Source: an uncultured Oscillospiraceae bacterium
GTDB taxonomy: Bacteria > Bacillota > Clostridia > Oscillospirales > CAG-382
Length of the DNA: 64,000 bases
Direction: 5' to 3'
Assembly (NCBI GenBank): GCA_964485815.1
Contig: CAZAJX010000001.1
Coordinates: 7,866-71,865 of the forward strand
Part shown: positions 32,229 to 45,176 of the stretch, piece after piece
Layout of the letters: each line of letters begins with the position of its first letter
Numbering within the stretch: position 1 is the stretch's first letter
The notes under the pieces: model-generated
What the model saw: the letters and a program-made list of their open reading frames with translations, nothing else
The model's database searches: none
What the model was told of the DNA's origin: nothing
Translations under genes and position numbers: made by a program

Positions 32229-32313
32229 CAAAAAATCACCTCTCAAGATGGTGCAACTTAGGGATTTACGAAAAACAGTAAATTTTTGAGCGACACCTTC
32301 AAGCGGGGCAAAC

Positions 32314-32360
32314 AAGAAAAGACCACATATAAGGATAAAACCTTGTGTGTGGTCTTTTTC
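32314..32360. terminator. hairpin terminator at the end of the defence operon
   Basis: GACCACATATAAGG-ATAAAA-CCTTGTGTGTGGTC with a flanking A run and T run, 10 nt beyond the stop of the 32370 gene. Two positions are G-U on the plus strand and C-A on the minus strand. Confidence 0.55.
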
Positions 32361-32369
32361 TGTTTGCGG

Positions 32370-32648
32370 TTATTCTTCCGCCTGGGGCAACATTACTTCA
32401 AGCATAATTCTTGCTCCGAGCCGAAACGCATATACGAATATTTCACGTTCGTTTATGTCCGTAAGCTCGGCATAGCAATCATCGAATTTTTCCAAAATCT
32501 CTTTTTGCTCTTCCGTAAGCGTTGCCTGTAGGTTATCGTGGTGATCGGCAATATAGCCCATCAACTGCTTTGCCAAGGGAGTGGATTCTCGGCATCCGGT
32601 GTTGGGGCAAATGTTGCCGTACCACAGTTCTTCAAGTATGTTTCTCAT
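32370..32648 (-). CDS. small helical protein, DUF6809-like (family seen on Firmicutes mobile elements)
   Basis: The ATG at 32648 gives MRNILEELWYGNICPN.... 92 aa. Family assignment is from memory of similar N-termini (LYYGNI.P) and is not verified. Confidence 0.45.
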   Translation of the reverse strand: MRNILEELWYGNICPNTGCRESTPLAKQLMGYIADHHDNLQATLTEEQKEILEKFDDCYAELTDINEREIFVYAFRLGARIMLEVMLPQAEE

Positions 32649-32723
32649 AGGCGCACCTCCTTGTAGCACAACACTATACCACAAGGAGGCGCGATAGTCC
32701 AGATAACAAATTGTGAACAAAAG

Positions 32724-34070
32724 TTATTGTAGCATTTTATATTCGCACAATTCCAATATTTTTTCTTTTGAAACACCAATTCGGCTTAAAATACAACAGT
32801 AAACGAGACCACACAGATAATGTGCAGTAATTGCGATTTCCATATCTAATGTTCTATGTCTGCCGTGTGTTATATCGTTTCTATATTTTACAAAAGCTCT
32901 AATGGATTCATCACTTATATGAACTGCCGTTTTATTCAACTTGTTCATTTCTTCTATATACTTGGCAAACAATGCACAAAGTTTTTCTCCTAACGGGAAT
33001 GACCAATAGGACATACTTGAGAAAATCATATTGTATGTATCATTGCTTAAACCGGGAGTGTCTTTTCTAAAATTTTTAATAGTTGATTTTACCGTCGAAG
33101 TCAATTGAGACAGAATGGTATTTTCTTCAGTTTTTATATCGTCGATGTACCCCAACTCGCACTCCAAGGCAGAACAAATTTCACGCACTTTAGCATCGGT
33201 CATTGTCGAGGAGTCTTTATCATCCTTAGGCAAAAAACCTAACAATGTAGTTTTATGCTCTTCGTCCTTTTTATAAAATAATTTTACAAGATTTGCAAAT
33301 GATTCTCCTAAATCCTCAATACAAATATTATGATGACAATCTTTTTCTGTTTCGGGCACATCATTCCGAACATAAACGCTTGCTATATTTGAGAACCGAT
33401 CCGATTCAGAATCATAGGTTTGCAGGTTTATTTTTTCAAACCCGACATTGTATCTAAAGGTTAAAAAGGACAGGACATCTTTGATCTTGTTATAATGGTA
33501 AAAAAACGATGAGAGCGGTTGTTCAGAATCGAAGCGCAATTCTAACACCACATTGTTGTTAGTTATAGAATGCCCTTTGACACCAAAATTCTCACTAATA
33601 ACCGAGCGTACGCTAATATCTATGGAACCATCTTCATAATCAATATGATATTTTCTTTCATCATCTTTGGGGCTGAGAATTGCACCCTCCGAAGTGTGTG
33701 TAATATTCAGCCCTTGGATATGAAAAACTGAATTTAAAGTTCCACCTGATAAAGTAATTCCTTTAAAAAACAACAAATTCTCTTCATAAACATTTGACGA
33801 TGATTTTATATACGCGGAAGTCCGAAGCGCAGAGGCCCCAAACACCTTAAAAACTCTATTTCCAAGAAATATTGCTATATTATGATTGTCGTGTGTTTTA
33901 CCTAAGATGAAACCATCTGTAGAAGGAATTTCGACCGATGATGTACCACCAAAAAAAGAATATACGGAGTCTGCCATAAAAGTAAAAACAAAATCATCGG
34001 GTTGTGCCGAAAATACAATTTGTTTACCCTCTTCTATGGGCACTATTCCTGTTAGCAATTTTTTGCTCAT
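32724..34070 (-). CDS. large HEPN-like (Rx4H) protein, ApeA-like architecture candidate
   Basis: The ATG at 34070 (MSKKLLTG...) gives 448 aa. The C-terminal helical region carries FVKYRNDITHG (R-x4-H, encoded at 32865-32882). The N-terminal ~300 aa have no domain I can name. Starts 20 nt downstream of the MTase stop on the same strand. Confidence 0.5.
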   Translation of the reverse strand: MSKKLLTGIVPIEEGKQIVFSAQPDDFVFTFMADSVYSFFGGTSSVEIPSTDGFILGKTHDNHNIAIFLGNRVFKVFGASALRTSAYIKSSSNVYEENLLFFKGITLSGGTLNSVFHIQGLNITHTSEGAILSPKDDERKYHIDYEDGSIDISVRSVISENFGVKGHSITNNNVVLELRFDSEQPLSSFFYHYNKIKDVLSFLTFRYNVGFEKINLQTYDSESDRFSNIASVYVRNDVPETEKDCHHNICIEDLGESFANLVKLFYKKDEEHKTTLLGFLPKDDKDSSTMTDAKVREICSALECELGYIDDIKTEENTILSQLTSTVKSTIKNFRKDTPGLSNDTYNMIFSSMSYWSFPLGEKLCALFAKYIEEMNKLNKTAVHISDESIRAFVKYRNDITHGRHRTLDMEIAITAHYLCGLVYCCILSRIGVSKEKILELCEYKMLQ

Positions 34071-43187: not shown

Positions 43188-43197
43188 GGACGAGCCT

Positions 43198-43365
43198 ATG
43201 GAGAAAACCAAGGAACGCTCTCATAAGACCGAAACCATTATTGACGGTACGGTCTATATCGTGGAATCGGTTAGTGCCGATGCCGCCAAGGATGTGGTTT
43301 ACGGAAAGGTGAAAAAGCTCATCATCGACCACGCAAAGTTATCCGTAAGTTCACAAGCATCATAA
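43198..43365 (+). CDS. small TnpW-like protein (not in the supplied ORF track because it is under 60 aa)
   Basis: The ATG at 43198 gives a 55-aa product MEKTKERSHKTETIIDGTVYIVESVSADAAKDVVYGKVKKLIIDHAKLSVSSQAS. The pattern (T.Y.V....A.......KV..LI) recalls the small proteins next to TnpX-type recombinases. Memory-based. Confidence 0.4.
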   Translation: MEKTKERSHKTETIIDGTVYIVESVSADAAKDVVYGKVKKLIIDHAKLSVSSQAS

Positions 43366-43441
43366 CACAAAAGACTTGACTTTTTGGCGATAGTACGGGA
43401 TAATACAGTACCGCTTGAAGGCTGTCGGAAAGGAGTAAAAA

Positions 43442-45091
43442 TTGAATAACAGACAGCCTACTATCGCCAAGAACGATAAAATCACGGCATTATATTGCCG
43501 CCTCTCCCGTGACGATGAACTTCAGGGAGACAGCAACAGTATCATCAACCAAAAAGCCATTTTGCAGAAATATGCAGATGACAACGGGTTCGGCAACACA
43601 ATGTTCTTTGTGGATGACGGATACAGCGGAACGAACTTTGACCGCCCCGATTGGCAACGCCTCATCTCCCTTGCGGAAGACGGCAAGATCGGAACGGTCA
43701 TCGTAAAGGATATGAGCCGACTCGGCAGAGACTACCTCAAGGTCGGTTACTACACCGAAGTGTTCTTTCCGGGCGTGGATATCCGCTTCATTGCCATAAA
43801 CAACGGTGTGGACAGTGCCAATCAGCAGGACAGCGACTTTACCCCATTCCTCAATATCATCAACGAGTGGTACGCTAAGGATACAAGCAAAAAGATACGC
43901 GCCGTATTCAAGGCAAAGGGACAATCGGGTAAACCGCTGTGTACGAATCCGCCCTACGGATATGTAAAAGCCCCCGAGGACAAGAGCCGATGGATAATCG
44001 ACCCCGAAGCCGCAGAGATTGTGAGAGAAATCTTCAGCCTCTGTGTGCAGGGATACGGCCCCACACAGATAGCCAAGGAGCTGACACAGAGAAAAATTGA
44101 GAACCCCGTGGCTCACGCTCGCAGGCTCGGCATAACCATTCCGGCAAAGCCTCTCGATGATGACCCTTGCATTTGGCACGATTCCACGGTGGCTCGGCTA
44201 CTGACCCGTGTAGAGTATTTGGGGCATACGGCAAACTTTAAGACCTACCGCAAGTCCTACAAAAACAAGAAGCAGATGCACAATGACCGCGAGGAATGGC
44301 AGATATTTGAGCACACCCACGAAGCCATCATCGACCAAGAGACCTTTGACATCGTACAGAAGATTCGTGACGGACGGCGCAGGCTGACTCCTATGGGTGA
44401 GATGCCGATCCTTTCGGGAATGCTGTTCTGTGCCGATTGCGGTGCGAAGCTCTACCAGGTGCGTGGGCGCGGATGGGAACATAGCCAAGAATACTTCGTT
44501 TGCGCTACATACCGAAAGCAAAAAGGCAAATGCAGTTCTCACCAAATTCGCAACGTGGTCATTGAGCAACTTCTGCTTGATGACATCCGTAGAGTTACCT
44601 CTTATGCGAGAGAACACGAGGACGAGTTCGTAAGGCTTGTAACGCAAAAATCCAAACAGGAGACCGAGCGTAATCTTCGTGAAAGCAAAAAGGAACTTGA
44701 GGCAGCCAAGGCTCGTGTCAGCAAGCTCGACGGCATTATCCAAAGGCTTTATGAGGACAACATCGAGGGTAAGGTTTCCGATGAGCGTTTCGCAAAGCTG
44801 ACCGACACCTACGAAGCAGAACAGCGAGAGCTTGAACGGCGCATTGCGGAACTGCAGAGCTTTATGGCAAACGCAAAAAACGAGTCCCTTGGCGTTGACA
44901 CCTTCCTTTCTATGGTTAGAAGGTATACGGACATCAAGGAACTCGATGCGGAGCTAATTCGTGTGTTCGTTGAAAAAATCCTCGTTTACAAGGCAGAAAA
45001 GGTAGACGGACACAGGGTTCAGCGTATCAAAATCATATATAACGGCATCGGTGAAATACCCACTACGCCTATAAACGAGAAAACGGCATAG
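43442..45091 (+). CDS. large serine recombinase (resolvase N-terminal domain, recombinase domain, zinc ribbon, coiled coil)
   Basis: 549 aa. TTG start 7 nt after GGAG. Catalytic region [34 protein letters not shown], zinc ribbon CADCGAKL...C, C-terminal coiled coil. Confidence 0.9.
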
Positions 45092-45176
45092 CCGAATTAA
45101 CGACTATGCCATTTTCCCAGGGATGCAAAATCCCTAATTTGCACCCACACACGAGGTGATTTTTTCGTATGTAATT

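Follow-up and report, generated by a model that had tools for sequence, protein, structure and literature searches.

A TnpX-like serine recombinase element in the loop of a terminator-like hairpin between convergent genes of an uncultured Oscillospiraceae bacterium

Introduction

Where does an inserted island begin and end, and what did its recombinase recognize in the site that it entered? This question is raised by a 64,000-nt stretch of DNA from an uncultured Oscillospiraceae bacterium (GenBank assembly GCA_964485815.1, contig CAZAJX010000001.1, positions 7,866 to 71,865 of the forward strand; the whole stretch analyzed is called the window below), in which about 12.9 kb of DNA with a large serine recombinase (LSR) gene close to its right end separate a permease gene from dapF. 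The initial annotation of the window, made from the sequence alone, had explained this DNA as an island at 32266-45124 bounded by two copies of AGGGAT, and had restored the empty site as an 80-nt compound hairpin (13+6+8 pairs, GCAAA loop) that would be both a terminator and the bacterial attachment site (attB). We find that the element extends from 32246 to 45151 (12,906 bp), and consider it very probable that it is an integrative element moved by its own TnpX-like LSR and inserted in the loop of a short two-way terminator between the permease and dapF genes.

Results

Empty Site, Junctions and Crossover

The left host gene (30945-32228, + strand) encodes a permease of the CitMHS/ArsB family (Pfam CitMHS 3.4e-35, ArsB 5.4e-26; stop codon TAA at 32226-32228), and the right one (45177-45935, - strand; stop at 45177-45179) is dapF, encoding diaminopimelate epimerase (PF01678 on the called gene). 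The start of dapF is ambiguous in the gene calls, yielding a protein of 252 aa or, if extended to 46046, of 289 aa. The two genes are convergent around the island site. The strings AAAAAATCACCTC-tcaagatg-GTGCAA-cTTAGGGAT (32230-32265) and ATCCCTAAt-TTGCAC-ccacacac-GAGGTGATTTTTT (45130-45165), quoted in the initial annotation together with both stop codons, are present as quoted, as are AGGGAT at 32260-32265 and 45119-45124, an LSR open reading frame (ORF) that ends 33 nt before 45124, and another terminator with a GCAAA loop at 7834-7862.

Five contexts were retrieved by exact look-up of the permease protein, and the same protein adjoins both filled and empty sites. One contig (L001), from run SRR14307658, carries the filled site, with 0 mismatches to the window over 7,748 nt. 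Three short metagenome contigs from Logan assemblies (L003, L004 and L005), which come from three other runs of the same SRR143076xx series, SRR14307632, SRR14307633 and SRR14307647, and have flanks approximately 99.5-99.8% identical to the window, are island-free; the permease-to-dapF spacer is only 42 nt long in each, not 89 nt as predicted initially, and all three read TGTAA-C-AAAAAATCACCTC-TCAC-GAGGTGATTTTTT-CGTATGTAATTTTAG. After removal of 32246-45151 the window is colinear with these contigs without gaps (14/6881, 30/5702 and 14/3951 mismatches, respectively). The presence of filled and empty alleles within one series of runs suggests recent mobility.

A three-way comparison of the empty site (CCTCT-CA-CGAGG) with the left junction, attL (CCTCT-CA-AGATGG), and the right junction, attR (CCCACA-CA-CGAGG), leaves CA as the only bases common to all three, with no further duplication. 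The crossover, which had been considered unreadable from a single copy, is therefore pinned to this dinucleotide, present at 32244-32245 in attL and at 45150-45151 in attR, and located exactly in the center of the loop TCAC and of the attB dyad. To the left of the core, attL retains the left attB half-site AAAAAATCACCTCT (32230-32243: A-tract, 5' stem and first loop base), and to the right of it attR retains the right half-site CGAGGTGATTTTTT (45152-45165: last loop base, 3' stem and T-tract). Both halves are identical in the empty contigs, and the left one forms a 13-pair hairpin with 45153-45165. The left end of the element (32246-32267) consists of a 4-nt spacer, AGAT, and an 18-nt left attP arm, GGTGCAACTTAGGGATTT (32250-32267), which contains GTGCAA and TTAGGGAT; the right end (45128-45149) consists of an 18-nt right arm, AAATCCCTAATTTGCACC (45128-45145), and a 4-nt spacer, CACA.

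The two arms are inverted repeats matching at 17 of 18 positions, each placed 4 nt from CA, and the two attB halves match at 13 of 14 positions with CA at the loop center; as read from these sequences, the predicted attP and attB are imperfect dyads centered on a 2-bp core, as LSR attachment sites are. Joining of the element ends gives a predicted attP of classical LSR layout, AAATCCCTAATTTGCACC-CACA-CA-AGAT-GGTGCAACTTAGGGATTT, with the circular junction expected to read ...TTTGCACCCACA-CA-AGATGGTGCAAC... (attP probe, TTTGCACCCACACAAGATGGTGCAAC). The corresponding attB is AAAAAATCACCTCT-[CA]-CGAGGTGATTTTTT (recombination substrate, AAAAAATCACCTCTCACGAGGTGATTTTTT; probe, ATCACCTCTCACGAGGTGAT).

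The native site is a hairpin with the stem AAAAAATCACCTC/GAGGTGATTTTTT (13 pairs) and the 4-nt loop TCAC. Its core is laid out as AAAAAA-TCACCTC-TCAC-GAGGTGA-TTTTTT, that is, a stem-loop followed by a T-tract on both strands, beginning 2 nt past the permease stop and ending 11 nt short of the dapF stop, and it folds with -16.9 and -17.5 kcal/mol on the two strands (z approximately -5). This is the anatomy of a two-way intrinsic terminator, and the site would be expected to function as one. In a relative represented by a 655-kb contig, GCA_965127945.1 (DapF at least 90% identical), the same 13-bp stem is found with the loop GCAT, and the permease-dapF spacer contains nothing like GTGCAA...TTAGGGAT and no element-like sequence. 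Two proposals of the initial annotation are hence borne out: an LSR-driven island in the loop of an A6/T6-flanked hairpin between the convergent genes, and a target with dyad symmetry of the kind seen in LSR attB sites.

Two further variants of this spacer have been observed. In GCA_965127945.1 (L160, 3760-3845) it is 86 nt long and contains a second hairpin, GAAGCC-TTGC-GGCTTC, upstream of the conserved terminator, with CA still central in the loop GCAT. A contig end from run SRR14307646 (L002, 7284-7339) presents a third allele of the permease 3' flank, in which the hairpin is intact up to GAGGTGATTT and then gives way to the unrelated CAGAGCGAAGACAAAGTCGGTCTTTAC, a tail found in no other locus; possible explanations are another insertion, into the T-tract, or a break in the assembly.

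Recombinase and TnpW-Like ORF

The LSR gene (43442-45091, + strand) is the sole recombinase gene of the island and lies 60 nt from its right end. The protein comprises the Pfam domains Resolvase (2.7e-22), Recombinase (PF07508, 3.1e-23), the zinc ribbon Zn_ribbon_recom (PF13408, 2.4e-14) and, at the C-terminus, DUF4368 (PF14287, 4.1e-23, residues 476-539). Among solved structures, the best match is TnpX, by its catalytic domain (2MHC, E 4e-42), whose serine motif YERLSRDD aligns with YCRLSRDD of the LSR; the second best is the catalytic domain of TP901-1. The enzyme belongs with TnpX/TndX-like DUF4368 recombinases. NCBIfam provides no equivalog for it (all matches are far under the cutoffs), and the exact look-up of the protein with either start found no recorded copy.

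Directly upstream, a 55-aa ORF (43198-43365, + strand) resembles TnpW, its Pfam TnpW score of 22.2 bits (E 1.2e-4) being under the 25-bit cutoff; there is no TnpW match in NCBIfam. The ORF at the same position in plasmid pPM400 of Bacillus badius scores 47.8 bits and is annotated as TnpW.

Target Sites of Related Elements

A protein-guided scan of one genome per species yielded 80 loci with LSRs 64-98% identical to that of the window, mostly in metagenome-assembled genomes of Clostridia, with some in Bacilli and other phyla, and an exact search for the left arm in metagenome contigs yielded 73 further loci. Before counting, 14 off-target right matches, ten right ends read in reverse and one duplicate of the window junction were removed from the junction sets. 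Downstream of the LSR gene, most relatives with enough sequence share the hairpin GGCATAG...CTATGCC (with the stop codon), a small hairpin GGGATT...AATCCC and the right arm, followed by complete divergence. The DNA past the right arm mostly resembles the 3' half of a terminator, e.g., ...AA-AGGGCGGCTTTTTT, ...AA-TAGGGTGCTTTTTT and ...AA-AGGCTGCTTTTTTTT, and the flanks upstream of the left arm are its mirror image, e.g., AAAAAAGGAGCCGCCCG-AA and AAAAAGCCCGGCG-CA.

At 71 unique junctions the right arm is conserved beside the LSR gene and unrelated host DNA comes after it, with a T-tract in 61 of them (86%) and the core AA in 42, TT in 27, and CA and GA in one each. The left arm adjoins unrelated host flanks in 57 unique junctions, 51 of which (89%) have an A-tract and 54 the core AA (other cores, 3). 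At random positions such tracts are found in 8% of cases. The half-site profile is the same on both sides: at positions +2 to +7, G makes up 46-63% on the right and 43-73% on the left, and at +9 to +16, T makes up 59-91% and 57-84%, respectively. The flanks of the family thus follow one grammar (A-tract, C-rich 5' stem, loop of approximately 4 nt usually with the AA core, G-rich 3' stem, T-tract), with the actual sequence differing from genome to genome; a target of this one kind is indicated by more than 100 related insertions.

For five other elements both ends are available in one locus, and the joined flanks fold as hairpins: AAAAAAGCCGCCC-AAAA-GGGCGGCTTTTTT in L026 (an element of 3,087 bp; -32.0 kcal/mol), L033 (-24.7 kcal/mol), L129 (-11.2 kcal/mol), L121 (-8.1 kcal/mol) and, weakly, L038 (-6.2 kcal/mol). 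The joined flanks of the B. badius element, assessed by eye, also form a hairpin, with one bulged base. In a crude assessment of gene context, based on stop-to-stop frames and the unfiltered junction sets, a long frame has its 3' end toward the junction in 43 of 79 right flanks and 31 of 49 left flanks, and for 30 and 16 of them, respectively, the distance between stop codon and core is less than 90 nt.

LSRs at least 94% identical (that of the window and those of L007-L013, 94-98%) are found within eight different flanking sequences. This agrees with the published working definition of a multi-targeting LSR, by which one cluster of LSRs with at least 90% identity is integrated in more than three unrelated targets. 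Since relatives with 64-98% identity occupy many sites of one grammar, the clade appears to use intergenic terminator-like palindromes as a generic landing pad. We also built a half-site weight matrix from the other family members only, with the window excluded, and it ranks the real site, in the correct register, second of 51,052 positions. The first rank is held by the terminator of convergent genes at 7834-7862 mentioned above, AAAAAATCCCGC-GCAAA-GCGGGATTTTTT, located between ORFs ending at 7825 (+ strand) and 7869 (- strand), with AA in its loop.

One subclade differs in the layout of its ends. In the right junctions of L041, L042 and L047-L080 the LSR-side end reads ...GCACC-ACCT-TT-host, and the arm is the exact inverse of the usual left arm (CAACTTAGGGATTT), so that the core orientation relative to the LSR gene is flipped in comparison with the AA-core subclade.

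Hairpins Near the Element Ends

Both ends of the element carry conserved hairpins of their own. At the left (32268-32360), a conserved block beginning with ACGAAAAACAGTAAATTTTTGAGCGACACCTTCAAGCGG is followed by a hairpin (32320-32355) and a run of five T, which we propose as a replacement terminator for permease read-through. In the alignment of 50 left ends (A2), approximately 60 nt are conserved before the hairpin, and all nine predicted pairs show compensatory changes; the hairpin folds with -22.8 kcal/mol (z -6.4), and together with the T-run lies 75-115 nt inside the left end. At the right (45085-45115), the conserved hairpin GGCATAG-loop-CTATGCC is followed by ATTTT and preceded by AAAA, with the LSR stop codon TAG (45089-45091) inside the 5' stem; we propose that it acts in both directions, terminating the LSR gene as well as read-through from dapF. 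It is nearly invariant in 46 aligned right ends (alignment A1), lies approximately 40-65 nt inside the right end and folds strongly on both strands (+ strand, -16.0 kcal/mol, z -4.7; - strand, -29.1 kcal/mol, z -7.7). The consensus terminator scan does not flag these hairpins, which we treat as a limit of the scanner rule. They probably take over termination of the permease and dapF transcripts.

Two details of these regions are worth recording. A stretch of approximately 50 nt directly inward of the left arm (window 32268-32319; ACGAAAACAAGTAAATTTTTGACCGACTCTCTTCAAGCGGAGG in most relatives) is conserved far beyond what an attP arm needs, with no Rfam match and no clear promoter; it may bind an accessory protein or encode a small structured RNA. 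At the right, the TAG embedded in the nearly invariant hairpin GGCATAGCC...CTATGCC, with an A-tract and a T-tract on either side, means that the end of the coding sequence and the two-way terminator overlap.

Alternative Interpretations

As the targets are true palindromes, the recombinase might recognize a structure, either an extruded cruciform or a single-stranded terminator hairpin, and not a sequence; IS200/IS605 transposases and integron integrases do act at folded sites. In agreement with this, the stem bases of the window site that depart from the consensus are exactly complementary (TCACCTC/GAGGTGA), other reconstructed sites give perfect stems, and the crossover falls in the loop. 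However, terminators are palindromic anyway, and hence palindromy does not separate the two readouts. Moreover, pure structure readout would not impose the strand asymmetry of the stems (C-rich 5', G-rich 3') present in almost all sites, and a resemblance to the attP spacer and arm is seen at the inner positions of attB (AA-AGGG...). LSRs bind double-stranded half-sites as dimers. The consistent stem asymmetry and the likeness of attB to attP suggest that the enzyme reads double-stranded sequence and not the hairpin, and structure recognition is an unlikely explanation.

Far less probable is a cut-and-paste or replicative transposon, with the inverted repeats of approximately 18 nt as transposase ends and CA, of which the empty site has one copy and the filled site two, as a 2-bp target-site duplication made by a DDE-type enzyme. 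None of the ten largest and five small ORFs of the island encodes a DDE transposase, the TnpX-like LSR being its sole recombinase, and a distance of 4 nt separates each arm from the core, as in the geometry of LSR attachment sites. TnpX-type serine recombinase elements (Tn4451, Tn5397) show exactly such a 2-bp signature.

The initially proposed compound hairpin deserves attention for its apparent strength, and is nevertheless hardly tenable. Deletion of 32266-45124 does produce a sequence of 80 nt that folds with -39.6 kcal/mol (13+7+8 pairs, GCAAA loop; z -9.9), none of 200 shuffled sequences doing as well, so its mirror symmetry is far beyond chance, and AGGGAT is present at both proposed junctions. 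However, in real island-free sites only the outer hairpin is found, with its 13 pairs and 4-nt loop (TCAC, or GCAT in the distant relative), and the permease-dapF intergenic sequence differs from the predicted one, an outcome that the initial annotation itself had named as refuting its proposal. The true junctions lie outside the proposed ones, by 20 nt on the left and by 27 nt on the right, and other copies of the element likewise end approximately 20-27 nt beyond the AGGGAT positions. The inner hairpin part (GGTGCAAcTTAGGGATTT/AAATCCCTAAtTTGCACC) is formed by the terminal inverted repeats of the element itself, the attP arms, which accompany it to dozens of unrelated sites, so that the long hairpin combines the host terminator with the ends of the element. 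AGGGAT is a part of the attP arm motif and not a crossover repeat, a 6-nt direct repeat alone not being beyond chance, and its right copy belongs, together with the GCAAA loop, to a small element-internal hairpin read from the sequence, AGGGAT-GCAAA-ATCCCT (45119-45135), whose 3' half opens the right attP arm and in place of which relatives keep GGGATT-nnnn-AATCCC. Neither the compound empty site nor the circular junction predicted from it (CCCAGGGATTTACG), which was wrong, occurs in any locus fetched.

That the empty contigs are secondary deletions or assembly collapses is just as implausible: they are short metagenome contigs, but three independent samples have an identical junction whose product is a perfect 13-bp hairpin, the divergent relative has the same hairpin on its 655-kb contig, and the site ranks second in the window by a matrix learned from other genomes.

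We thus return to the reading of the island as an LSR element inserted in a terminator loop, against which several observations weigh. The consensus terminator scan does not list the native attB hairpin, which is thus a putative terminator, read from its anatomy; the silence of the scanner is probably due to pairing of the A6 and T6 tracts, which are then counted as stem, as the rule wants a T-run after the maximally extended stem. The best-ranking site, 7834-7862, is unoccupied in all ten contexts returned for the neighboring gene, and with one occupied site in this species multi-targeting is not observed within it. Approximately 11-14% of the family flanks have no tract. The locus L038, whose element ends (887 and 11734) are 10.8 kb apart, has a poor flank hairpin, possibly reflecting adjacent or nested elements or a rearranged site. 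The core of the window is CA, compared to AA or TT in most relatives, including L007, which has AA and an LSR 98% identical; the attP core may vary between copies, or mismatched cores may be tolerated and repaired. Finally, no circular or tandem attP junction was found in the 73 metagenome left-arm loci or in any fetched locus, and the left-arm pattern has 0 matches in IMG/VR viral contigs.

Gene Content of the Element

The left part of the island, on the - strand, carries cargo. It encodes a DUF6809 protein (32370-32720; PF20648, 1.5e-25), an ApeA-like HEPN protein that is a candidate for defence (32724-34151; Pfam HEPN_Apea and ApeA_NTD1, 5.8e-06 each, just over the curated cutoffs) and a restriction-modification set (34091-37663) with two C5 cytosine methylases (34091-35041 and 36593-37663; Pfam DNA_methylase, 2.9e-86 and 2e-72 for the two) flanking an endonuclease with a FokI cleavage domain and an AlwI-like region (35041-36600; FokI_cleav_dom 1.7e-16, RE_AlwI 9.8e-09). 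These are followed, on the same strand, by a Cro/CI-type helix-turn-helix (HTH) regulator (37678-37962; Pfam HTH_26 1e-07, PHROG transcriptional repressor 4.9e-11).

Apart from the gene of the HTH regulator, the backbone genes are on the + strand and comprise a primase-helicase of the P4/D5 family (38563-40857; PHROG DNA primase 2e-116, TIGR01613 2e-45), found upstream of the LSR gene in 56 related loci, four small ORFs (41171-41440, 41444-41734, 41759-41974 and 42019-42234) with no confident family match and with homologs at the same position in related elements, and an HK97-type phage major capsid protein (42249-43187; Pfam Phage_capsid 4.9e-67, TIGR01554 3.6e-68), found in 68 related loci approximately 1.4 kb upstream of the LSR gene. 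Rfam has no match in the island at E up to 1, and no relaxase or resistance family is present among its ten largest and five small ORFs. PHROGs reveal no terminase small subunit, portal, protease or head-tail connector in the island, and the small ORFs have no PHROG match.

The order HTH regulator, P4/D5 primase, small ORFs, HK97 capsid, TnpW-like ORF, LSR is kept across dozens of loci (window 38563-45091; L007-L086; L165, B. badius pPM400, 79.3-92.7 kb). The left-hand cargo varies, being type IIS-like restriction-modification, ApeA-like and DUF6809 genes in the window, and type III restriction-modification and an AAA ATPase in pPM400. In L064, restriction-modification genes nearly the same as those of the window (89-98% identical) stand beside an LSR just 68% identical, indicating cargo exchange. 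The backbone family may constitute undescribed satellite-like carriers of defence genes. A minimal member of 3,087 bp (L026, 8652-11739), with perfect terminator halves and the AA core, contains only a 197-aa ORF, small ORFs and the LSR gene; as it is integrated without primase and capsid genes, these are not needed for integration.

Discussion

The likely course of integration can be outlined as follows. The circular form would carry attP, with its two 18-nt inverted arms each 4 nt from the 2-bp core, and the LSR would pair it with the chromosomal attB, the terminator DNA between convergent genes. LSR dimers would bind the attP arms and the near-identical terminator halves and make staggered cuts at the central CA, in the middle of the loop, upon which the halves would rotate, exchange and be religated. 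Each terminator half would end up flanking one end of the island, and the element-borne hairpins at 32320-32355 and 45085-45110 would take over termination of the flanking genes.

As an integrative element of an LSR the island is ordinary; it fits the multi-targeting DUF4368 clade, and both the kind of enzyme and the gross motif are already known. We lean, by a modest degree, towards a broader view, in which a large and widespread clade of DUF4368 TnpX-like recombinases has evolved to use the grammar of two-way terminators as a host-independent landing pad, crossing over in the loop, with the elements carrying replacement terminators at both ends. Elements of the primase-capsid-TnpW-LSR type with swappable defence cargo could then gain entry to nearly any Bacillota genome while leaving genes and operons intact.

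Several consequences follow. A convincing-looking reconstruction has been shown to be wrong, and the true limits of the island, the CA crossover and the attachment sites are now fixed. The "A-rich / AA / T-rich" motif of multi-targeting LSRs receives a biological reading, as the natural sites look like terminator palindromes at gene ends. This reading would explain the occurrence of one recombinase lineage across many families of Clostridia and in Bacilli, the tolerance of the insertions and the terminator-like hairpins at both ends. The rank of the real site by a matrix from other genomes suggests a simple rule for the prediction of insertion sites, and the natural attB/attP pairs indicated by this rule might be tested for use as tools. 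In the open-access full-text literature we found no description of LSRs targeting terminators or terminator loops, and the terminator-loop reading of natural LSR targets may be new.

Among known systems, phage satellites (phage-inducible chromosomal islands, PICI; capsid-forming PICI; P4-like) resemble the island in size (approximately 10-13 kb) and in having an integrase, an HTH regulator, a P4/D5-type primase and a capsid gene in conserved order. They differ in that the island has the HK97 capsid gene only, with no packaging or head-morphogenesis module by PHROGs, and that its integrase is a serine recombinase; known here from its genes, it is not a recognizable PICI or capsid-forming PICI.

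Classical phage serine integrases (phiC31, Bxb1, A118, TP901-1) use one unique attB, often inside a gene, with attachment-site dyads of approximately 40-50 bp around a 2-bp core and attP arms longer than the attB arms. By analogy, the chemistry and the attachment-site layout would be the same in the element studied here, whereas the clade to which its LSR belongs differs in the use of a degenerate class of sites and in the DUF4368 tail.

The likeness to TnpX of Tn4451/Tn4453 (Clostridium perfringens / C. difficile) and TndX of Tn5397 is closer: TnpX provides the nearest solved catalytic domain, the domain set including DUF4368 is the same, a small ORF with a TnpW match under the cutoff lies directly upstream, a single serine recombinase gene is located at one end, and a 2-bp core that occurs once in the target is found at both junctions. 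The TnpX target reportedly resembles the joint of the circular form, and the target in the window likewise resembles the predicted joint. On the other hand, the core is not GA, as in Tn4451/Tn4453, but CA in the window and AA or TT in related elements; among the ORFs scanned, there is no chloramphenicol-resistance gene, tet(M), relaxase (TnpZ) or conjugation module; and the cargo comprises restriction-modification and ApeA-like genes, with primase and HK97 capsid in the backbone. With a core other than GA, no relaxase and no resistance gene, the island is not a Tn4451-type transposon in the strict sense.

A DUF4368-enriched LSR clade, including TndX-like enzymes, has been described as multi-targeting, the motif of one member, Cp36, being A-rich on the 5' side and T-rich on the 3' side of an AA core (Durrant et al., 2022; PMC10083194); the words terminator, hairpin and palindrom- are absent from the main text of that paper. 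The family studied here shares with this clade the DUF4368 domain, the presence of closely related LSRs in many sites and a motif that agrees with the family flank profile; the window site has the A6 and T6 tracts, but the core CA. The difference from Cp36, which is compared by its description and not by sequence, is that the natural targets here are A-tract/stem/loop/stem/T-tract palindromes in spacers at gene ends, with an additional internal signal of C-rich and G-rich stems.

Palindromes also attract mobile DNA of other kinds. IS1397 and ISKpn1 insert in the loops of palindromic units by means of a DDE transposase, and class C bacterial group II introns insert after intrinsic terminators by means of a retrohoming ribonucleoprotein. 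The element in the window resembles both in that its target is an abundant non-coding intergenic palindrome, the genes being spared, and differs from them in that it employs a serine recombinase, with the crossover inside the loop.

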